This document shows positions 2,341 through 11,503 of a stretch of DNA of 15,014 bases, piece after piece. This stretch comes from a virus: the UHGV virus genome UHGV-0054899; one strand, written 5' to 3'. A program made the position numbers and the translations under genes. The stretch's first letter is position 1; each line of letters begins with the position of its first letter. Under the pieces are notes generated by a model, which worked only from the letters and a program-made list of their open reading frames with translations, was not told the origin of the DNA and ran no database searches.

Positions 2341-2748
2341 ATGGACAGCTTAAAGCAACGCATTCTCGACTACGTATCAGCTAACCAGCCAGCCAAGGTT
2401 GACCTGATTTACAAGGAGCTTGGCATCTGCCGTAACCGGTACTACGAAGAGGCTAAGCAACTCAGGTTCATGGGTATGTTGCGAAGCGTTCCGGGTATCG
2501 GTGTATTCACCGGTGAAGATGCTTATCAGCACTGGCTGAAAAGTGGAGGCTACGAAGAAATCAGACGACGCGCTGTCGATGCAAACCTGAGTAGCCAGGA
2601 AGCGAAGGGGATGAAGAAACCGCGTAACATCGACGACCCGAAGATGTTCGCACCATATGACCCGGCGAAAAATGGAGTCGTGGCTGAATTCATGCAGAGC
2701 GATGCGAGAAAGCGGCTGATGATGGTTTACGGGAGGTTAGGAGCATGA
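2341..2748 (+). CDS. hypothetical phage protein (nin-region-like)
   Basis: ATG at 2341 with AGGTGA 8 nt upstream; the track's 2332 start is a GTG overlapping the P stop. 135 aa; stop overlaps the next start (ATGA). No recognisable motif. Confidence 0.55.
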   Translation: MDSLKQRILDYVSANQPAKVDLIYKELGICRNRYYEEAKQLRFMGMLRSVPGIGVFTGEDAYQHWLKSGGYEEIRRRAVDANLSSQEAKGMKKPRNIDDPKMFAPYDPAKNGVVAEFMQSDARKRLMMVYGRLGA

Positions 2749-3044
2749 AAGAGACACGCAACACACGAGAAATCATTGAGCAGGAATATAACGAATTCCC
2801 TGAAACCATCCTCCACGCTGAACTATGCCGCGCATGTGCTCGCGTAGACGGTCGCAGCATCAAGCAGTCACTCAAGGCATTTGCTCTGGCACGTATCGAG
2901 AAGGTTGAGAGCAAGCCACTTAAAGGCGCACTGGAGCAGATGGCATCAAGCATGTTTCCAGAGACAGAGATAGCCCGTATCCGCTCCTGTGTAGGTCGCA
3001 TGGAGTCGGCACTGGTTAAGACATTCGGAGTGAAGCGAGCATGA
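2745..3044 (+). CDS. hypothetical phage protein
   Basis: ATG at 2745 preceded by GGGAGG…AGGAG; translationally coupled to the upstream gene; 99 aa. Confidence 0.55.
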   Translation: MKETRNTREIIEQEYNEFPETILHAELCRACARVDGRSIKQSLKAFALARIEKVESKPLKGALEQMASSMFPETEIARIRSCVGRMESALVKTFGVKRA

Positions 3045-3127
3045 CTGAACCTTACATAGCAGAGCTATCTGCAAGCGTGGCCGTGATAGTCGGCCTTTTT
3101 TATGCGATACGCAAAAACATCGATTAA
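3041..3127 (+). CDS. possible small hydrophobic peptide (28 aa, MTEPYIAELSASVAVIVGLFYAIRKNID)
   Basis: ATG overlaps the upstream stop (ATGA), with GGAG upstream. It is below the track's length cutoff and overlaps a weak hairpin plus T-run (3079-3102), so it may simply be terminator sequence. Confidence 0.25.
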   Translation: MTEPYIAELSASVAVIVGLFYAIRKNID

Positions 3128-3129
3128 CA

Positions 3130-3152
3130 GGCTCGCATCGCGGGCCTTTTTT
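3130..3152 (+). terminator. Rho-independent terminator candidate
   Basis: GGCUCGC-AUC-GCGGGCC stem (7 bp with one G·U pair) followed by UUUUUU. It sits between the replication/nin-like block and the next gene. Confidence 0.5.
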
Positions 3153-3166
3153 ATGAGGGTAGGATT

Positions 3167-3682
3167 ATGACTAATGAATCAAGCGCAAACGCAATCATTG
3201 GCAACACGCTAAGAATTATCGCTTCTGGCGAATACCATCCCGGAGCAGAACTTACTCAAAAGATGGCGTCTTACATCATCGAACTTGAGCAAAAACTCAC
3301 AGACATGGCAGTACAGCTTGCTAACGCCGAGAGCAAGTGCAGGGAGCTGGCGGCGGCAGAGAACAACCTCATTGATAGCGAATGTCATGTTGCTGAACTG
3401 GAGGACGCGCTACGTGATAAACAGGCATTAATTGAAGCTGCAGAGAAGCGCATAGCAGAGCATAACTTTGAAAATCGGTTACTGGCTAATGCTGATCGCG
3501 ATATCAAAGCATTGCGACAGCGCATAGCAGAACTGGAGGCGGGGACGGTGGCAGTAAAGCTATTCGGTGACTTCCAGATTGTCCACTATGGCGGTTCTGA
3601 GGATTACGCGAAAGGTTATATCGACTGCCAGAACAACTACAACAAGGCGCTTGCCGCCGCTGGCATTGGCGTGAAGGGGTAG
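3167..3682 (+). CDS. Ea22-like coiled-coil protein (putative)
   Basis: ATG at 3167 with GAGGGTAGGA upstream. 171 aa with long heptad-like E/A/L/K-rich stretches (…LEQKLTDMAVQLANAESKCRELAAAENNL…ALRQRIAELEAG…), typical of ead/Ea22-like lambdoid proteins. Family call is from memory. Confidence 0.55.
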   Translation: MTNESSANAIIGNTLRIIASGEYHPGAELTQKMASYIIELEQKLTDMAVQLANAESKCRELAAAENNLIDSECHVAELEDALRDKQALIEAAEKRIAEHNFENRLLANADRDIKALRQRIAELEAGTVAVKLFGDFQIVHYGGSEDYAKGYIDCQNNYNKALAAAGIGVKG

Positions 3683-3686
3683 TGAG

Positions 3687-3890
3687 ATGTCAAAGTCACC
3701 AATGAAACTCATGCTACGGGCATGGAACAAAGAGCTTAAAAATCCAGAATGGGGCATGGGCAATCGTAAACACCGCAAAGCTTGTGCTCGTGATTTTGCC
3801 GGAGCCAGCATAGAAACAGATGCTGATATCCCTAACCAAGCCGAAGCAGATGACCGCCTGGCGGAAGAACTTACTTACTGGACGGACTAA
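3687..3890 (+). CDS. hypothetical small phage protein
   Basis: ATG at 3687 with AAGGGG upstream; 67 aa. Confidence 0.5.
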   Translation: MSKSPMKLMLRAWNKELKNPEWGMGNRKHRKACARDFAGASIETDADIPNQAEADDRLAEELTYWTD

Positions 3891-3893
3891 CCC

Positions 3894-4091
3894 ATGACAA
3901 CTAACCACCCGGCGCACGGTCCTGTATCACTCGATCGCCTGCACCAGATAAGCGAAATACTCAGCAAAGCAGCAGCACAAAGCGACGGCGGTAATCTCGG
4001 CTACGCAATGGCTGATGCTGTGAAGGTGATTGATGGGGTTCTGGAGTCGATGGCCCGCGAACAAGTACGCCGTGAACATGCAGCATGGTAA
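3894..4091 (+). CDS. hypothetical protein; probable N-terminal fragment of the downstream MazG-like gene
   Basis: 65-codon ORF ending at TAA 4089-4091. The same reading frame continues open straight into the downstream ORF (see findings). Confidence 0.45.
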   Translation: MTTNHPAHGPVSLDRLHQISEILSKAAAQSDGGNLGYAMADAVKVIDGVLESMAREQVRREHAAW

Positions 4092-4196
4092 CTGGCTACT
4101 TTCGGGGATGTCGGCCCAGTTGGTCCGCTGAAGCACCTTTCCAAAGAAGCGCTCGAGGCCGCTGCGGAACCAGGCGACCTTAGCGAATGGGCTGAC

Positions 4197-4643
4197 ATGC
4201 AGTTCCTGTTATGGGATGCGCAACGTCGTGCCGGTATCAGTGATGAGCAGATTAACCAGGCGATGGTAGAAAAGCTGGCGGTTAACAAACAGCGCAAATG
4301 GCCTGAGCCGAAAGATGGTGAGCCGCGACTGCATATCAAAGAGCAGCCTGCGCCGGTTGTGCCAGAGGTAATGGCGGACCCTGACGAGAGTCAGTATGGC
4401 GGAACATATGATGAGGATTATCAGGCGGAATGCGCATACGTGGAGGGCTGGAACGCCTGCCGCGCCGCCATGCTTCAGGCTGGCAACTCTCCGGTAACTC
4501 CGGATGGTTACGTACTGGTTCCGAAGGAGATTACCTGTGCAATGGACGATGCGGCATGGGAGGCATATCACGAAACTAGATGCATGAGTGATATATGGGC
4601 AGCGTTACTCGCAGTAGCACCGAAGCAGGAGGATGTAAAATGA
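4197..4643 (+). CDS. MazG-like nucleotide pyrophosphohydrolase-like protein (DUF550/DUF551-like), possibly truncated or disrupted
   Basis: First ATG at 4197, but the frame is open from 4092 and the 35 codons upstream (LATFGDVGPVGPLKHLSKEALEAAAEPGDLSEWAD) look like conserved coding sequence. Family call is from recalled prophage nin-region proteins. Confidence 0.55.
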   Translation: MQFLLWDAQRRAGISDEQINQAMVEKLAVNKQRKWPEPKDGEPRLHIKEQPAPVVPEVMADPDESQYGGTYDEDYQAECAYVEGWNACRAAMLQAGNSPVTPDGYVLVPKEITCAMDDAAWEAYHETRCMSDIWAALLAVAPKQEDVK

Positions 4644-4780
4644 AACTATATGCACTGCGTAAAGATTGCGGTCATCAGTGGACAGTTACCGGATCACTGG
4701 TGACATGTCCTAAATGCGGAGGGCGTAGCTTTTCTGTCAGTACAGCACCGCAGCAGGAGGTGAAGCGATGTCGAAACTAA
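4640..4780 (+). CDS. small zinc-ribbon protein (46 aa)
   Basis: ATG at 4640 with AGGAGG 7 nt upstream, overlapping the upstream stop. Two Cys pairs: C-G-H…C-P-K-C-G-G. The track's longer 4595 start lies inside the previous gene and lacks a ribosome-binding site. Confidence 0.5.
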   Translation: MKLYALRKDCGHQWTVTGSLVTCPKCGGRSFSVSTAPQQEVKRCRN

Positions 4781-5022
4781 CTTTCGTCATTGAGTTTGAG
4801 GATGGTAAAGAACCTCCTGTACATGCTCATATGGAAGCGTTCGGCGGCAAGGTTGTTGCAGTGGCCTTCCGTGATGCACTAAGCGAGCAGGAAGAACGTG
4901 AGCAGGTAACAAGCATTTATGAGCCGCTAAACACTATCCGTTGTTTTATCTGTAATGTTCGCCACCCAATCGGCGTTGCTTGTCCGTTTAATACGATTAC
5001 TTCGGCGGTAAGCAATGGCTAA
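4768..5022 (+). CDS. hypothetical phage protein
   Basis: ATG at 4768 with AGGAGG 7 nt upstream; 84 aa. Confidence 0.55.
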   Translation: MSKLTFVIEFEDGKEPPVHAHMEAFGGKVVAVAFRDALSEQEEREQVTSIYEPLNTIRCFICNVRHPIGVACPFNTITSAVSNG

Positions 5023-5353
5023 ATCCGCAGCAGAGCGCAAAGCCGCGCAGCGTGCCCGTCTGGCTGAAGCCGGTAACCGCAAGATGGAATTGCAACTCGA
5101 CGAGCAGGAAATGGAGATGCTGGCGCGAAACTGCGCCGCCCGGCGCCCTGGTCGTGCGACGTATGAAATGGCTGAGTACATCGCGCTGTTGATCCGCCAG
5201 GATGATGCCCGGGTGCGTGGTCGTATCAAGTCAATCAGTGCTAACCGGTGTGGTAAGTGTGGCGATGTATTACCTGTTGAGTCGTGTCCGTGCGACGGGG
5301 ATTCGGCATGCTGGGTTACGCGTGGCTGGCATGAGACTAAATTATCAGTGTGA
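5015..5353 (+). CDS. hypothetical protein with C-terminal Cys cluster (possible zinc-binding regulator)
   Basis: ATG at 5015; 112 aa. C-terminal motif C-G-K-C-G…C-P-C-D…C. Last gene before the terminase operon. Confidence 0.55.
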   Translation: MAKSAAERKAAQRARLAEAGNRKMELQLDEQEMEMLARNCAARRPGRATYEMAEYIALLIRQDDARVRGRIKSISANRCGKCGDVLPVESCPCDGDSACWVTRGWHETKLSV

Positions 5354-5361
5354 CATGTCAC
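5350..5361. repeat. perfect 12-bp palindrome GTGACATGTCAC (copy 1)
   Basis: Read directly; overlaps the stop codon of the 5015-5353 gene. An identical copy lies at 7556-7567. Confidence 0.8.
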
Positions 5362-5384
5362 GATATCTGCAATAAATTGCAATG

Positions 5385-5410
5385 GCCGCCGACTATGGCG
5401 GCTTTGTTTT
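5385..5410 (+). terminator. Rho-independent terminator candidate upstream of the terminase operon
   Basis: GCCGCC-GACTAT-GGCGGC (6-bp GC stem) followed by TTTGTTTT. It lies inside the track's 5382 N-terminal extension, which argues against that start. Confidence 0.55.
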
Positions 5411-5421
5411 GCGTGTTACTA

Positions 5422-5454
5422 TTACCAAAACGGTAATTATTACTTCGGTGGTAA
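5422..5454. promoter_or_regulatory. two adjacent inverted-repeat sites TTACC-N5-GGTAA (5422-5436 perfect; 5440-5454 TTACT-N5-GGTAA), candidate operator or activator site for the late operon
   Basis: Read directly, immediately upstream of the terminase small subunit start. An identical perfect site is at 8655-8669. Confidence 0.4.
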
Positions 5455-5456
5455 CA

Positions 5457-6050
5457 ATGCCCGCAGAACCAAAAGCACCAAAACGCAAATCAACGCAGTA
5501 CAAGCCACTCACAGCGATGCAGGAGGCTTATGCACAGGAATATACCAAATGCCCTGAGAATCAGACTCAGGCGGCGATTAACGCAGGATTCTCGCCTAAT
5601 CCGGCGGCTGTCAAAGCCAGCGTCATGATGCGTGATGAGCGTATCCAGAAACGGATCGCCGAACTGATGGAAGAGCGCAACAAGCGCCTGCGCGTCAGTG
5701 CTGATTATGTGCTGCTCCGTTTGGTGGAAATTGACCAGATGGATGTGATCGATATCCTCAACGACGACGGCACACTGAAGCCGATCCGCGAGTGGCCGAA
5801 GATATGGCGTACCACGCTGAGCGGTTTCGACCTTTCATCGACCATCATGAACATGGACGAGACATCAATCGAGACGATCCTCAAAAAAATCAAATGGCCT
5901 GACAAGGTGAAGAATCTCGAGCTCATCGGCAAGCACGTCGACGTCAACGCGTTCAAAGAGCGCCTGGAGGTTTCAGGCACTGTCACCATTGCCGACCGCA
6001 TGGCGAAGGCTCGCCGTCGCGTGAAAGAGCAGGCTGGTGGTGAAGAATGA
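5457..6050 (+). CDS. terminase small subunit
   Basis: ATG at 5457 after GGTGG. N-terminal region (…LTAMQEAYAQEYTK…NQTQAAINAGFSPNPAAVKASVMMRDERIQKRIAEL…) is typical of terminase small subunits. Stop overlaps the large subunit start (ATGA). Confidence 0.8.
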   Translation: MPAEPKAPKRKSTQYKPLTAMQEAYAQEYTKCPENQTQAAINAGFSPNPAAVKASVMMRDERIQKRIAELMEERNKRLRVSADYVLLRLVEIDQMDVIDILNDDGTLKPIREWPKIWRTTLSGFDLSSTIMNMDETSIETILKKIKWPDKVKNLELIGKHVDVNAFKERLEVSGTVTIADRMAKARRRVKEQAGGEE

Positions 6051-7528
6051 CAGCCGCATCCATGTCGCCGGAAGAACAACTCGTCGAGGATATCGCTGGG
6101 TTCACGTATGACCCGCTTGGCTATTCTCTGTATGCGTTCCCGTGGGGAGAAGAGGGAACGGAGCTGGCGCATGCCACTGGGCCGCGTAAATGGCAGGCCG
6201 ACGCATTCCGCGAGATACGCGATCACCTCCAGAACCCCGTTACCCGCCATCAACCGCTGATGCTGGCGCGCGCATCCGGTCACGGCATCGGTAAATCCGC
6301 TTTCATATCGATGCTGATTAACTGGGGCATGTCCACCTGCGAGGATTGCAAGGTGGTGGTGACCGCCAATACCGACAACCAGCTGCGTACCAAGACATGG
6401 CCGGAAATCATCAAATGGTCCAACCTGGCTATCACCAAAGAGTGGTTCACCTGCACCGCCACCGCGATGTACAGCAACGATCCCGGACACGATAAACGCT
6501 GGCGCGCTGACGCCATTCCGTGGTCTGAGCACAACACCGAGGCATTCGCAGGGCTGCATAACGAGCGTAAGCGCATTATCGTGGTGTTCGACGAAGCGTC
6601 CAACATTGCCGATCTGGTATGGGAGGTTGCCGAGGGTGCGCTGACGGACGAGGACACTGAAATCATCTGGGTGGCGTTCGGGAACCCAACGCGCAACACC
6701 GGGCGTTTCCGCGAATGCTTTCGCAAATACAAGCACCGCTGGAAGTGCGCGCAGATTGACAGTCGCACCGTTGAAGGCACCAACAAGCAGCAGTTGCAGA
6801 AATGGGTGGACGACTACGGAGAGGACAGCGACTTCGTGAAGGTCCGTGTGCGCGGGATCTTCCCTGATGCGTCTGAGAACCAGTTTATCCCATCAGGCCT
6901 GACACAGCCTGCCGTGGGCAGGGTTATCACTCCGGCGCAGGTCCAGCACGCTGCTGTAGTTCTTGGCGTCGACCCGTCTCACCAGGGTAAAGACCCGGCA
7001 GTTATCTACCTTAGGCAAGGGCTGCACTGTAAGAAACTTGGCGAGTGGCAACGAACTACCGACGACGTATTGTTTGCTAAGGTGATTGCCGACTTTGAAG
7101 ACCAGTACCAGGCCGATGCTGTGTTTATCGATTACGGGTACGGGACCGGGCTTAAATCAGTTGGCGATAACTGGGGCCGTAACTGGACCCTGATTCAGTT
7201 CGGCAGCGGTACGGCAGATCCAGAGATGGGCAATAAACGCGGTGAGATGTACAAATCAGCCCGCGATGCGCTGAAGCTTGGGGCGCAACTCGACAGCCAG
7301 AACCTTGCCGATGAGCTGAGTGCGCCGGAGTACAAGGTCAGGCTGAAGGACAGCAGGAAGATTTTGCAGGACAAGGAAGAAGTCAAAGAGTTGCTTGGCA
7401 GATCCCCGAACGATGCCGACGCATACGTGCTGACATATGCCGCTCCTGTGACCAAAAAGCAATTCAACTATGGGCAGCAGCAGAGCCAGCATGGCAAGGC
7501 TCTCACAGAGTACGATCCCTATGCATGA
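6047..7528 (+). CDS. terminase large subunit
   Basis: 493 aa, translationally coupled to the small subunit. Walker A-like SGHGIGKS, Walker B-like IIVVFDEAS, and a C-terminal nuclease-type region (…VLGVDPS…). Confidence 0.9.
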   Translation: MTAASMSPEEQLVEDIAGFTYDPLGYSLYAFPWGEEGTELAHATGPRKWQADAFREIRDHLQNPVTRHQPLMLARASGHGIGKSAFISMLINWGMSTCEDCKVVVTANTDNQLRTKTWPEIIKWSNLAITKEWFTCTATAMYSNDPGHDKRWRADAIPWSEHNTEAFAGLHNERKRIIVVFDEASNIADLVWEVAEGALTDEDTEIIWVAFGNPTRNTGRFRECFRKYKHRWKCAQIDSRTVEGTNKQQLQKWVDDYGEDSDFVKVRVRGIFPDASENQFIPSGLTQPAVGRVITPAQVQHAAVVLGVDPSHQGKDPAVIYLRQGLHCKKLGEWQRTTDDVLFAKVIADFEDQYQADAVFIDYGYGTGLKSVGDNWGRNWTLIQFGSGTADPEMGNKRGEMYKSARDALKLGAQLDSQNLADELSAPEYKVRLKDSRKILQDKEEVKELLGRSPNDADAYVLTYAAPVTKKQFNYGQQQSQHGKALTEYDPYA

Positions 7529-7551
7529 AAAAGCCCGCGCATCGACGGGCT
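7527..7551 (-). terminator. Rho-independent terminator for the minus-strand accessory gene
   Basis: Stem AGCCCG / CGGGCT with an 8-nt loop; on the minus strand it is followed by UUUUU (the + strand AAAAA at 7527-7531). On the + strand there is no T-run after it. Confidence 0.5.
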
Positions 7552-7555
7552 GATT

Positions 7556-7567
7556 GTGACATGTCAC
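7556..7567. repeat. perfect 12-bp palindrome GTGACATGTCAC (copy 2; 14 bp TGTGACATGTCACA at 7555-7568)
   Basis: Read directly; lies between the minus-gene stop (7572-7574) and its terminator, and just after the terminase large subunit stop. Confidence 0.8.
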
Positions 7568-7571
7568 AGCG

Positions 7572-7991
7572 TTACTTAATGGCATCAAATCCAGCGTTGA
7601 TGGCTTCCGCAATATTGGTGGCATTGGTTTTATCGAATTGTCCATTCTGAATAAGTGCCGCATGCAGACATTGTAACTTCATGTTGTATAAGTGTTCGCT
7701 CATGTAATCATCATCACTTTTTTCTTTAGCATAAACAGCGCGAGAAATATCAAACACATTGCCTTTTTCCATTTCAGAACGTTGTGCCGCTATCCAGTCA
7801 TAGCACGTAACGCTAGTGCCATGGTCTTCGCTAAGAGTTAACCCGGCCAGTTTCTCACCCTGAATTACTTCGTAATGCATTTCATTGCCAGCAAAAACGC
7901 CATAAAAAATGCAGTCATCAGCCTGAACGATACGGGAATATTTTAATGGCCATTCATTTAGATACTTAGCCAACATATCAACTGTTTTCAT
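7572..7991 (-). CDS. hypothetical acidic protein of unknown function (139 aa), accessory 'moron' gene
   Basis: Only credible minus-strand gene in the window. Strong Shine-Dalgarno AAGGTGAG ahead of the ATG, own downstream terminator, and visibly lower GC than the flanks. No motif I recognise. Confidence 0.75.
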   Translation of the reverse strand: MKTVDMLAKYLNEWPLKYSRIVQADDCIFYGVFAGNEMHYEVIQGEKLAGLTLSEDHGTSVTCYDWIAAQRSEMEKGNVFDISRAVYAKEKSDDDYMSEHLYNMKLQCLHAALIQNGQFDKTNATNIAEAINAGFDAIK

Positions 7992-8002
7992 AGTCTCACC
8001 TT

Positions 8003-8026
8003 AAAAAAATGCCCACCGAAGTGGGC
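8003..8026 (-). terminator. intrinsic terminator or attenuator hairpin directly upstream of the accessory gene's ribosome-binding site
   Basis: On the minus strand: GCCCAC-UUCG-GUGGGC, then A, then UUUUUUU, running straight into AAGGTGAGACT-ATG. Confidence 0.55.
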
Positions 8027-8654
8027 GAACTGGAAGCAAGGGAGCCTTCCATGGCTTACGGGTTTACAACACAACGTCATCACAATGGCGTTCTGGTGTA
8101 AAAGTGACGGTGGTCAGCATCAAGGGAAACTGCCACCGCCAAAGGCTACACAGCATCGTTCTTATGGGCGCTTCATCACGGTCCTAAGGCGTGATTGGGT
8201 TGTGGTGGCCGGTGCTGAACTCCGGCTTGGCTATGCGACTTGCTAGTTGACACCGGAGTTTCACCGGGGCGAAGGTTTCGCAAATCGTTTATTGGGTCAG
8301 TGCTGGCTTGCAACGCGCTTACTCAACCGACTACAGCCAACGATATCTACTACCCATCAGGTCTTACACTTGCGCATCAGCCTGCGCATTCACCACAACG
8401 GAAAGAGCACTGGCTAACCAGGCTTCACCGACTCCTCACGATTATCGGTTCAGTGCTCTTACCTGTTGCATCCTCGTCTCTTCCGAGGTGTCACACCGTA
8501 TCGCCACGATGGTGAATCGTCTGTCCGTGCTTACCTAACACTGGCTTGCACATTCCGGCTACCCGGCTGGGGAAGTAGCATCAAGGGAACCCATCCGGAC
8601 CGCTGCGGCACATGTGCCATATGCCGTACATCCACTGCGTCACATCAACACCAA
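8027..8654 (-). ncRNA. candidate structured noncoding RNA or long regulatory leader (identity unknown)
   Basis: About 630 bp with no minus-strand ORF of 60 aa or more; the + strand carries only three mutually overlapping ORFs in all three frames with non-protein-like composition. Ends at a minus-strand terminator. Contains GC-rich hairpins, a 12-bp palindrome GGCACATGTGCC (8607-8618) and dispersed short repeats. Strand and function are inferred only. Confidence 0.25.
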
Positions 8655-8669
8655 TTACCTAAAAGGTAA
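8655..8669. promoter_or_regulatory. inverted-repeat site TTACC-TAAAA-GGTAA (third copy of the motif) in an AT-rich putative promoter region
   Basis: Read directly, in the AT-rich stretch 8650-8750 upstream of the structural operon. A TTGACA hexamer sits on the minus strand at 8691-8686. Confidence 0.4.
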
Positions 8670-8759
8670 TATCTGATGTTATAAGTGTCAATAGCCTACG
8701 CTAAATAAATCATATGTGGTTAAATTGGTAATAATTTAATTGCGTACGGAGCTATTGCT

Positions 8760-8966
8760 ATGTGTATCGGCAGCAAGCCATCAGTGCCAGCAGCGCCAGA
8801 AGTACAGGCTGCGCCACAGGAGCAGGATGCAGCAGTCGTCAGTTCTCGTGACGACGAAGAGCGCCGCCGACGTGCAGCAGCAGGCCGCAGTTCCACTCTG
8901 CTGACTGGTGCGCAGGGTGACACATCAACCGCAAACACCAGCGGTAAAACGCTGCTTGGTCAGTAA
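8760..8966 (+). CDS. small protein beginning MCIGSKP…, possible virion protein (T7 gp6.7-like by recollection)
   Basis: ATG at 8760 with GGAG 8 nt upstream; 68 aa, Ala/Pro/charged-rich. Resemblance to T7 gp6.7 (N-terminal MC-x-S-P-K, small size, position ahead of the portal gene) is from memory and weak. Confidence 0.45.
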   Translation: MCIGSKPSVPAAPEVQAAPQEQDAAVVSSRDDEERRRRAAAGRSSTLLTGAQGDTSTANTSGKTLLGQ

Positions 8967-8980
8967 CGGAGTAGGCAGAG

Positions 8981-10651
8981 ATGGCGGAAACCGAAAAAGA
9001 GCGCCTGCTGAAGCAGCTAGCACAGCTGAAGAATGAGCGCACATCGTTCGAATCGCACTGGCGTGATCTGAGTGACTTCATCAATCCGCGCGGTTCCCGC
9101 TTTCTGACGTCTGATGTAAACCGTGATGATCGTCGTAACACTAAGATTGTTGATCCTACCGGCTCAATGGCTCAGCGCATTCTGTCCAGTGGCATGATGT
9201 CAGGCATCACCAGCCCGGCACGTCCGTGGTTCAAACTGGCAACGCCTGACCCTGACATGATGGACTATGGCCCGGTGAAAATCTGGCTGGAAGTCGTGCA
9301 GCGCCGTATGAACGAAGTGTTCAACAAGTCTAACCTGTATCAGTCACTTCCTGTTATGTACGCAAGCCTGGGTACTTTCGGCACCGGCGCTATGGCTGTT
9401 CTGGAAGATGACCAGGACGTGATCCGTACAATGCCTTTCCCTATTGGCAGTTACTATCTGGCAAACAGTCCGCGCGGTAGCGTTGACACCTGCATTCGTC
9501 AGTTCTCCATGACTGTGCGCCAGATGGTGCAGGAATTCGGGCTGGATAACGTCAGTACATCCGTAAAAGGCATGTTGGAAAACGGCACGTATGAAACGTG
9601 GGTGGAGGTTAACCACTGCATCACGCCTAACGTCAACCGCGACAGCGGGAAGATGGACAGCAAGAATAAGCCTTACCGCTCTGTCTATTTCGAAACTGGC
9701 GGTGACGCTGACAAGCTGCTGCGTGAATCCGGTTTCGATGAATTCCCAATCCTGGCTCCGCGCTGGGAAGTGAACGGTGAAGACGTTTACGCCTCATCTT
9801 GCCCTGGTATGTTGGCACTCGGTCAGGTTAAAGCCCTTCAGGTTGAGCAGAAGCGCAAAGCTCAGCTTATCGATAAAGCCACTAACCCGCCGATGGTTGC
9901 CCCGACATCGCTCAAGAATCAGCGTGTTTCCCTGTTGCCTGGCGATGTGACATATCTCGACGTGTTGACCGGTCAGGATGGTTTCAAACCTGCATACCTG
10001 GTTAACCCGAATACTGCCGACCTGCTGGCTGACATTCAGGATACCCGCCAGACCATCAACAGCGCCTACTTCGTTGACCTCTTCATGATGCTGCAAAACA
10101 TCAACACTCGCTCTATGCCGGTGGAAGCGGTGATCGAGATGAAGGAAGAGAAACTGCTGATGCTTGGCCCGGTGCTTGAGCGACTGAATGACGAAGCGCT
10201 TAACCCGCTTATCGATCGCGTGTTCTCAATCATGGCCCGCAAGAACATGTTGCCTGAACCGCCAGACGTTCTTCAGGGTATGCCGCTGCGTATCGAGTAC
10301 ATCTCTGTGATGGCTCAGGCGCAGAAATCTATCGGCCTCACCAGCCTGTCGCAGACAGTTAGCTTTATCGGGCAACTGGCACAGTTCAAACCTGAAGCGC
10401 TCGACAAGCTCGACGTTGATCAGGCTATCGACGCGTTCTCTGAAATGTCAGGCGTATCGCCAACCGTCATCGTTCCGCAAGAGCAGGTACAAGGTATTCG
10501 TGAAGATCGCGCGAAACAGGCTCAGGCAGCACAGGCAATGGCTATGGGTCAGGCGGCAGCGCAGGGAGCCAAGACTCTCAGCGAAACGCAGACCAGCGAC
10601 CCGAGCGCATTAACCGCTATCGCTAATGCAGCAGGAGCACCGCAGCAATGA
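8981..10651 (+). CDS. portal (head-to-tail connector) protein
   Basis: 556 aa, first large gene after terminase. C-terminal Q/A/M-rich tail (…AQAAQAMAMGQAAAQGA…) resembles T7 gp8-type connectors as I recall them. Confidence 0.75.
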   Translation: MAETEKERLLKQLAQLKNERTSFESHWRDLSDFINPRGSRFLTSDVNRDDRRNTKIVDPTGSMAQRILSSGMMSGITSPARPWFKLATPDPDMMDYGPVKIWLEVVQRRMNEVFNKSNLYQSLPVMYASLGTFGTGAMAVLEDDQDVIRTMPFPIGSYYLANSPRGSVDTCIRQFSMTVRQMVQEFGLDNVSTSVKGMLENGTYETWVEVNHCITPNVNRDSGKMDSKNKPYRSVYFETGGDADKLLRESGFDEFPILAPRWEVNGEDVYASSCPGMLALGQVKALQVEQKRKAQLIDKATNPPMVAPTSLKNQRVSLLPGDVTYLDVLTGQDGFKPAYLVNPNTADLLADIQDTRQTINSAYFVDLFMMLQNINTRSMPVEAVIEMKEEKLLMLGPVLERLNDEALNPLIDRVFSIMARKNMLPEPPDVLQGMPLRIEYISVMAQAQKSIGLTSLSQTVSFIGQLAQFKPEALDKLDVDQAIDAFSEMSGVSPTVIVPQEQVQGIREDRAKQAQAAQAMAMGQAAAQGAKTLSETQTSDPSALTAIANAAGAPQQ

Positions 10652-10947: not shown

Positions 10948-11489
10948 TCCGTAAACGCATGATCAGACTGAGAAACGACGGTAATTCGACTATTGCAGAT
11001 TTCTATGCAGTGGATGAAGAGCCGCAGACATTTCAGATGGACATATTTAACTGGACCGGATCTCAGGTTGTGGCTGATGCCGCTTTCCAGAACTTCTTTT
11101 CACTTTCAGGGATCGTTAAAGCTGCTGACGGTAACGCGAATCTCAGCATCAATTCGGGAAATCTTATATTCCCTGCTCAGGAAGCGCCGAGCCAGGTTCT
11201 TTTCAGTACCCGTATTAACGGTACCGTTGGTGGTGCGTCAGGAACGGCAAGGGAATGGATGATTCAGACCAGGCGCCCAAATGGCGACATAGTCGGATCC
11301 GAGTCAAGCGTGAAGGTGAACGGAACCAGCATCAGTAACCGTGACGATGTACTTGCCAGTTTCACCATGAATGAACTTGATCCGTTCACCGTCAGCGGAA
11401 TTCAGGTCGGCCTTTCAAATGAATCAGGCCAGACCATCACGTTGACCTCTGTATCTGTCAGGGTTCAACGCGTCATCAGCATTGATTAA
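10944..11489 (+). CDS. hypothetical structural-module protein (beta-rich)
   Basis: ATG at 10944 with AGGAG 8 nt upstream, ATGA overlap with the upstream stop; 181 aa rich in G/S/T/N/V. Confidence 0.55.
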   Translation: MIRKRMIRLRNDGNSTIADFYAVDEEPQTFQMDIFNWTGSQVVADAAFQNFFSLSGIVKAADGNANLSINSGNLIFPAQEAPSQVLFSTRINGTVGGASGTAREWMIQTRRPNGDIVGSESSVKVNGTSISNRDDVLASFTMNELDPFTVSGIQVGLSNESGQTITLTSVSVRVQRVISID

Positions 11490-11503
11490 CAAGAAGGTAA
11501 CGT

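Follow-up and report, generated by a model that had tools for sequence, protein, structure and literature searches.

Predicted operators of an epsilon15-type lysogeny repressor ahead of the packaging and structural operons of a metagenomic podophage contig

The 15,014-bp viral sequence UHGV-0054899 (hereafter the window, meaning the whole stretch of DNA that was analysed) carries two perfect copies of an inverted repeat, TTACC-N5-GGTAA, one upstream of the terminase small subunit gene (terS) and one ahead of the structural operon. Most probably (about 0.85 in our estimate) these sites are operators of the CI-like lysogeny repressor Rep of epsilon15-like podophages (gp38 in epsilon15, Rep in SPC32H). 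Sites of this kind are already known, since both copies are identical to members of the operator set annotated in the public epsilon15 record. The two share their motif and their genomic position with annotated repressor sites, follow the conservation pattern of those sites among relatives, and belong to a motif that co-occurs with rep. Gene content and DNA matches identify the window as the late part of a phage genome of the epsilon15-like group (Uetakevirus); it is the complete metagenomic contig NODE_2299 of ENA ERZ1310117, with a coverage of 3.2x.

The exact motif TTACCNNNNNGGTAA occurs twice in the window against a chance expectation of 0.01, and none of 200 dinucleotide-preserving shuffles gave two copies. 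The repeated palindrome singled out by the original prediction, which was made from the letters alone, is thus real, and all of its coordinates agreed with the window sequence. The two perfect sites are as follows.

5422-5436: perfect site, TTACCAAAACGGTAA
8655-8669: perfect site, TTACCTAAAAGGTAA

Just two 5-mers form a perfect 5-N5-5 palindrome twice in the window, TTACC being one of them. Both sites widen to a 17-bp palindrome, ATTACC-N5-GGTAAT with an A/T-rich spacer, at 5421-5437 and 8654-8670. With up to one mismatch, six sites are found in the window against 0.16 expected; the four imperfect ones lie at 5440-5454, 11486-11500, 4997-5011 and 5242-5256, the last two being near-matches absent from the original list. 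Three of the four were rejected as operators. The site at 11486-11500, previously listed as a variant before the scaffold gene, occurs only in the window and in E2348/69 and falls within a ribosome-binding site, with which it coincides by chance; that at 5242-5256 is inside coding sequence, on the C-G-K codons of a cysteine motif, and is not conserved; and that at 4997-5011 was seen only in the window and in C. braakii.

The strongest evidence comes from epsilon15 itself. Window positions 5411-5459 are identical to positions 1-49 of the epsilon15 genome record (49/49), the palindrome at 5421-5437 corresponding to epsilon15 11-27 (17/17 identical), and the palindrome at 8654-8670 is identical to epsilon15 2931-2947 (17/17). 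The record (GenBank AY150271.2) annotates 12-27 and 2931-2947 as protein_bind features with the bound moiety "repressor" and the note "lysogeny", and it annotates five more repressor sites, at 19895, 32479, 32554, 32616 and 35906. Both window sites are therefore positionally homologous to annotated repressor sites of a reference genome. Our scan of epsilon15 gave 11 perfect sites, all of them intergenic, with the following arrangement.

Around the repressor gene gp38: three sites on the left and two on the right, plus a one-mismatch third on the right
Before the RuvC-like gene: two sites, 62 bp apart
One site each: before terS; before gp3; between ant (gp19) and the tailspike gene; before the lysis genes

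Kropinski et al. reportedly dealt with the repressor-binding sites of epsilon15 in 2007, and the switch between Rep and the antirepressor Ant in SPC32H is said to have been described by Kim & Ryu in 2013 and Kim et al. in 2016. A literature search on ATTACC/GGTAAT repressor sites returned unrelated papers only.

This layout is common to epsilon15, SPC32H, phiV10 and the E. coli prophages of E2348/69 and MARGA_3, which have 8-11 sites per genome: two or three sites to the left and one or two to the right of rep, an early-right pair 62 bp apart, and then sites at terS, gp3 and ant/tailspike, while a site at the lysis genes recurs in some relatives only. The prophages of E2348/69 and MARGA_3 have ten sites each, all within the prophage. 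A count in prophage and host had been suggested as a check on the motif, and for E2348/69 it gave these ten sites and none in the separately scanned host flanks. Fifteen relatives from about ten enterobacterial genera yielded 119 perfect sites in 409 kb, against 0.39 expected, and their 89 unique sites have the consensus (A)TTACC-wwwww-GGTAA(T), with 77% A/T in the spacer. Scanning species-representative genomes with the terS protein led to ten prophages, in Citrobacter (2), Pseudocitrobacter, Erwinia, Scandinavium, Superficieibacter, Klebsiella, Pseudescherichia, Buttiauxella and Samsonia, and each of the ten has both the terS- and the gp3-upstream site, perfect or one mismatch off. All 80 IMG/VR relatives have a perfect terS-upstream site, and 70 of 71 have a perfect gp3-upstream site. 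When either intergenic region is aligned, none of the ten half-site bases varies, so that the motif survives the comparison of homologous intergenic regions by which the original prediction had proposed it could be refuted.

The motif also travels with its presumptive regulator. A Rep homologue (36-99% identity) is encoded in each of the 14 reference or species-genome relatives whose upstream DNA is long enough, with the motif clustered around it in every one, and all 61 IMG/VR loci that extend at least 7.5 kb upstream have rep. Natural hybrids lacking Rep were sought for operator decay, and none was found among the 80 IMG/VR relatives and 10 species genomes. The N-terminal 70 residues of Rep, which contain the helix-turn-helix, are strongly conserved even where overall identity is 37-45%, which fits the unchanged half-site. 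Structures of Rep are available (PDB 5D50 and 5D4Z). Rep is reported to bind palindromic sites as a tetramer (PMC9638917), and its inactivation depends on an antirepressor and not on RecA-stimulated cleavage (PMC7380047): Ant, whose synthesis is controlled by LexA, dismantles the Rep tetramer (PMC9638917, PMC9986798, PMC7380047). In the Uetakevirus vB_EcoP_ZX5, over-expression of the repressor abolished free phage and lowered endolysin transcription by 99.99% (PMC9782041).

Upstream of terS, a terminator, two adjacent palindromes and the start codon follow one another closely.

5384-5411, plus strand: rho-independent terminator ending the early-right operon (8-bp stem, T-tract, -14.4 kcal/mol), 10 bp before O1
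5421-5437: O1, predicted operator, perfect 17-bp palindrome ATTACCAAAACGGTAAT, upstream of terS
5440-5454: O2, predicted weaker second operator TTACTTCGGTGGTAA, with 9 of 10 half-site bases, overlapping the terS Shine-Dalgarno sequence GGTGG
5457-6050, plus strand: terS (PHROG phrog_51)
6047-7528, plus strand: terL, the second gene of the terS-terL operon directly downstream of O1 and O2 (PHROG phrog_2)

The 15-bp core of O1 ends 20 bp before the terS ATG at 5457. O1 and O2 are 18 bp apart from centre to centre, about the spacing of the OR1-OR2 pair beside rep (17-18 bp). The one-mismatch neighbour noted at 5440-5454 turns out to be a conserved second operator: O2 keeps nine of ten half-site matches in 83 of 83 scored loci, 3-5 bp after O1, and its lone mismatch falls, by lineage, in the left half (TTACT..GGTAA) or in the right half (TTACC..GGTTA). 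Exactly one mismatch in all loci, on a side that differs by lineage, argues for selection for a deliberately weaker operator. The terminator is annotated in epsilon15 at 39646-39672 and is conserved in most relatives. Gene callers (ENA; RefSeq PGAP on E2348/69) start terS at the ATG at 5382, in which case the gene would run through the terminator and both operators. Relatives carry frame-breaking indels of 1-2 nt between O1 and O2, and the stretch is therefore non-coding and terS starts at 5457; the epsilon15 terS coding sequence begins at the ATG homologous to 5457. As a separate observation, TTACTTCGGCGGTAAgcaATG at 4997-5017, before the gp49-like gene, duplicates the O2/ribosome-binding region TTACTTCGGTGGTAAcaATG (5440-5459). 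The duplicate is found only in the window and in C. braakii, and lies at a mosaic boundary, the homology of most relatives beginning at 5011-5016.

Ahead of the structural operon, which begins with the gp3-like and portal genes, the single perfect site lies in a divergent control region.

8654-8670: predicted operator, perfect 17-bp palindrome ATTACCTAAAAGGTAAT, upstream of the gp3/portal operon
8686-8691, minus strand: invariant TTGACA (-35-like), 17 bp from TACCTT (plus-strand 8664-8669, within the operator)
8711-8734, plus strand: late-promoter-like motif CATATGTGGTT-N7-TAATAA, 26 bp before the gp3 ATG
8760-8966, plus strand: gp3-like small protein (PHROG phrog_831)
8981-10651, plus strand: portal (PHROG phrog_332; Pfam Head-tail_con)

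In the alignment the half-sites of the gp3 operator are invariant and its upstream flank is unconserved. On the plus strand the -35-like element reads TGTCAA in 78 of 86 loci and NGTCAA in the others, and its distance to the operator is fixed in all 86, which points to a candidate leftward promoter whose -10 would be covered by the operator. A lambda-like arrangement would place the operators over -35 or -10 elements. A consensus scan called no sigma-70 promoter at either operator; the leftward TTGACA-17-TACCTT and its overlap with the 8655 operator were seen by eye, as was a weak TTGCGT-17-GGTAAT at terS, the lone promoter-like match there.

The 8711-8734 block is invariant in 15 relatives. 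Its general form is CATATGTGGTT-N7-TA(A/T)NA(A/T/G), and the core ATAT[GA][TA]GGTT occurs exactly three times in epsilon15, and phiV10 has it at the three homologous positions. All copies are on the plus strand and precede gp3, the tailspike gene and the lysis genes, and each lies 44-56 bp after a Rep operator or near-operator.

Locus L003, late-promoter-like motif copies: 2988, 19940, 24751
Locus L016, late-promoter-like motif copies: 3308, 20921, 24739

The centres of the gp3, tailspike and lysis operators precede the putative -10 by 55-67 bp (67 bp at gp3), which is too far for simple occlusion of these late promoters. The -10 region of the gp3 motif contains a GGTAA half-site exactly 62 bp from the operator, which is the spacing of the OL and early-right operator pairs.

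Rep binding at the two late sites, and the mode of repression there, can be sketched from sequence as follows. In a lysogen, the tetramer of Rep, with its N-terminal helix-turn-helix, would occupy about ten intergenic palindromes at the heads of transcription units. This would silence the early promoters next to rep as well as, by direct action, the packaging (terS-terL), structural (gp3-portal), ant/tailspike and lysis units. On induction, LexA-controlled Ant would take the tetramer apart. The gap of 45 bp from the early-operon terminator to the terS ATG is filled completely by O1 and O2, so that bound Rep would block initiation at a weak promoter or read-through. At gp3, the single operator in the divergent control region would cover the -10 of the leftward promoter candidate for a non-coding RNA, and rightward a tetramer could bridge the operator and the half-site 62 bp away. 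A wider version, for which we would give rather long odds, is that Rep gates each late unit from a distant operator upstream of a new late-promoter element, perhaps by tetramer bridging to the -10 half-site, and that the gp3 operator also shuts a divergent promoter of an approximately 200-nt structured RNA with a variable cargo slot.

Several points weigh against assigning the sites to Rep. The 15-kb contig has no rep gene and no immunity region, and its left 3.9 kb is lambdoid (CII, ANT, O, P), so that Rep is a presumed cognate repressor for this molecule. Because the consensus scan finds no sigma-70 promoter at either site, occlusion at terS and at gp3 rightward is only proposed. The distance of the gp3, tailspike and lysis operators from the putative -10 is unusual for simple repression. 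The original prediction had seen no obvious late regulator among the recognisable genes, and indeed no gene in the window is the regulator: a search of the window for a Rep homologue found none, which places rep outside the contig.

The alternative that survives best takes the lambdoid left end at face value. The phage would then be a true recombinant with lambdoid CI/Cro/CII immunity and without epsilon15-type Rep, and the operators would be orphan relics, unoccupied or used in trans by a co-resident epsilon15-like prophage. The window does begin with a CII C-terminus that is 100% identical to the CII of lambdoid prophages, and proteins identical to its ANT were found only in lambdoid prophages. 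In all six contexts fetched, those prophages have a CI with a Peptidase_S24 domain and a Cro-like gene, and their 124 kb contain no TTACC-N5-GGTAA. Conversely, the lambdoid CII of the window is present in none of 95 epsilon15-like loci. However, the join between the lambdoid CII-ANT-O-P module and the epsilon15-like late region falls at 3888-4038, in a 150-bp segment common to both kinds of phage, and both parental configurations are present in one other gut sample, ERR321623. There, one contig (L031) matches window positions 3888-5606 at 99.94% identity and joins them to an early region of the canonical epsilon15 type, which has paired operators, and another (L013) links the lambdoid left side (2546-4038) to a different right side. 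In a further metagenome the contigs break at the same place (L011 ends at 3942 and L030 starts at 3979), and neither the phage nor the E. coli collections contain a record that crosses the junction. The shared segment, the 3.2x coverage and the lack of a spanning record make a chimeric assembly likelier than a recombinant, and such an assembly is probably the origin of the lambdoid left end; the true partner of the late region almost certainly encodes Rep. The operators in the window show no decay. We therefore regard a true recombinant as improbable.

Somewhat less credible still is a dedicated, late-made phage activator that binds the palindrome and switches on the packaging and structural operons. 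The original prediction had left the choice between a helix-turn-helix-dimer operator and a late-activator site. Its first half stands, in the sense of symmetric operators that a helix-turn-helix oligomer would bind at the head of these operons, and the activator half is not supported. The distance of about 55-67 bp between the gp3, tailspike and lysis sites and the putative -10 is typical of activator sites, and the gene just before terS (5015-5353) encodes a cysteine-rich protein that PHROG labels 'transcriptional regulator'. It is also conceivable, as pure inference, that a Cro-like small protein (epsilon15 gp39) shares the Rep operators in lytic growth. Yet the motif is not specific to late units: it is densest around rep, with clusters flanking the repressor gene and a pair in the early-right operon in 14 of 14 relatives with enough sequence, and 5-7 of the 8-11 sites of every full relative belong to these two regions. 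The two terS sites extend over the ribosome-binding site, with no space for a promoter downstream of them, and the epsilon15 record annotates the sites as repressor sites. What is specifically common to the late units is a different motif, CATATGTGGTT-N7-TAnnAn, which fits a late-regulatory element better than TTACC-N5-GGTAA does.

RNA hairpins in the terS and gp3 leaders, acting in processing, attenuation or translational control, are very improbable. The 17-mers do fold into hairpins of 6-7 bp (z-scores -3.6 and -4.0), and O2 overlaps the terS Shine-Dalgarno sequence and contains a UUCG loop; but the folds are weak (-4.6 and -5.5 kcal/mol), their scores are a trivial result of palindromy, and sites are also present between divergent genes, in either transcriptional context, and upstream of promoters, where no transcript would include them. 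Across the 119 sites the stem positions never co-vary and no compensatory changes are seen, while the would-be loop changes freely: spacers differ by genus (AAAAC, AAAAT, ATAAC, ACAAC, ATATT and GCGCC), and the upstream flanks cannot be aligned. Invariant half-sites with variable spacers indicate a protein operator rather than an RNA hairpin.

Reading the sites as Rep operators invites comparison with better-known repressors. The closest likeness is with epsilon15 and SPC32H, where the sequence at both sites, the position relative to terS and gp3, and the genome-wide site set in relatives are the same; the window differs in having only two late-region loci (three sites) and no rep, and Rep binding at the late sites is predicted in the record. 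In lambda, the operators are 17-bp pseudo-palindromes for a helix-turn-helix repressor, and the Q antiterminator controls the late genes. The CI/Cro operators OL and OR resemble the present system in their length and symmetry, in the type of repressor, in adjacent sites that flank the repressor gene, and in cooperative or oligomeric binding. Lambda has operators only at OL and OR, whereas here they would stand directly before the packaging, structural, tailspike and lysis units. The gp71 repressor of mycobacteriophage L5 acts at about 30 sites throughout the genome, including the late region; these stoperators are asymmetric, orientation-dependent and often within operons. L5 shares with the present system a single immunity repressor, scattered sites and direct silencing outside the immunity region, and the terS site, placed after a terminator and before terS, may act as a roadblock in the manner of L5 stoperators. 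Unlike those, the sites described here are perfect palindromes, number about ten per genome and are intergenic (11 of 11 in epsilon15), and they were accordingly not assigned to the gp71 type.

The window thus adds one more, metagenomic, instance of operators annotated in the epsilon15 record. Across about ten genera, the pattern would describe a family of temperate podophages that carry operators of a single repressor before essentially every transcription unit, packaging and structural units included, in contrast with the two-operator immunity region and late antitermination cascade of lambda. The same regions contain elements that have no annotation: the late-promoter-like motif described above, a terminator-associated 12-bp palindrome, and a structured RNA beside a cargo slot.

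By PHROG and Pfam, the left part of the window encodes in order the CII C-terminus, ANT, O-like and P-like proteins, several small open reading frames and a 112-aa protein. The right part encodes terS, terL, a minus-strand 139-aa gene, a 770-bp non-coding stretch, and the gp3-like, portal, protease and major capsid genes. Similarity to epsilon15-like podophages is found rightward from about 5011 and, further left, in a short patch at 3884-4039; the Uetakevirus DNA matched is that of PAT1, SPN1S, SPC32H, epsilon15, phiV10 and prophages of E. coli E2348/69. ARAGORN found no tRNA in the window, and no Rfam family was found in it.

The 112-aa protein (5015-5353, gp49-like) is encoded by the last gene before the late region; it has a basic N-terminus and a conserved cysteine cluster, C-x2-C ... 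C-P-C ... C. With its PHROGs label of 'transcriptional regulator' it is a candidate late regulator. A homologue was detected by tblastn in 16 of 16 genomes checked, and among its 772 homologues the named ones listed are all 'hypothetical protein' or 'Phage protein'. It has no match in Pfam, NCBIfam or PDB, and its AlphaFold model has a pLDDT of 59.9, too low for a fold search.

Downstream of the candidate leftward promoter lies a further conserved element.

8003-8205, minus strand: conserved structured RNA candidate, ending in a terminator at 8003-8030

Alignment and RNAalifold give it five hairpins with 46 pairs; its loops vary, and its terminator shows compensatory changes. It was detected by nhmmer in 91 of 103 loci, in each case on the minus strand; some relatives (e.g. 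epsilon15, L039 and L079) match only its 3' core of about 145 nt. It belongs to no Rfam family, and a permissive scan of 7950-8780 gave a sub-threshold, terminator-driven RyhB-like match. A 13-bp direct repeat, AGCATCAAGGGAA, at 8116-8128 and 8577-8589 flanks a 461-bp segment that is absent from the minimal relatives L039 and L079. Among the other relatives, 60-1147 bp separate the gp3 operator from the 5' end of the RNA portion that was matched, and the cargo includes a minus-strand tRNA-Arg(tct) in SPC32H and a pseudo-tRNA in E2348/69, so the segment between the repeats looks like a cargo or insertion hotspot. The leader between the gp3 operator and the minus-strand RNA is conserved and contains a 12-bp palindrome with an ACATGT core, GGCACATGTGCC, at 8607-8618.

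The same core recurs in a perfect 12-bp palindrome, GTGACATGTCAC, at 5350-5361 and 7556-7567 of the window, with two or three copies in each full relative genome examined. Searches for this palindrome returned no annotation and no literature mention. The third copy in full genomes is at 19517 in L003, 19634 in L015 and 19493 in L016. The palindrome is invariant in about ten genera while its flanks vary, and it always adjoins a rho-independent terminator at the end of an operon, namely behind the gp49-like gene (whose TGA it overlaps), terL and the last structural gene; it may bind a protein involved in termination or anti-termination.

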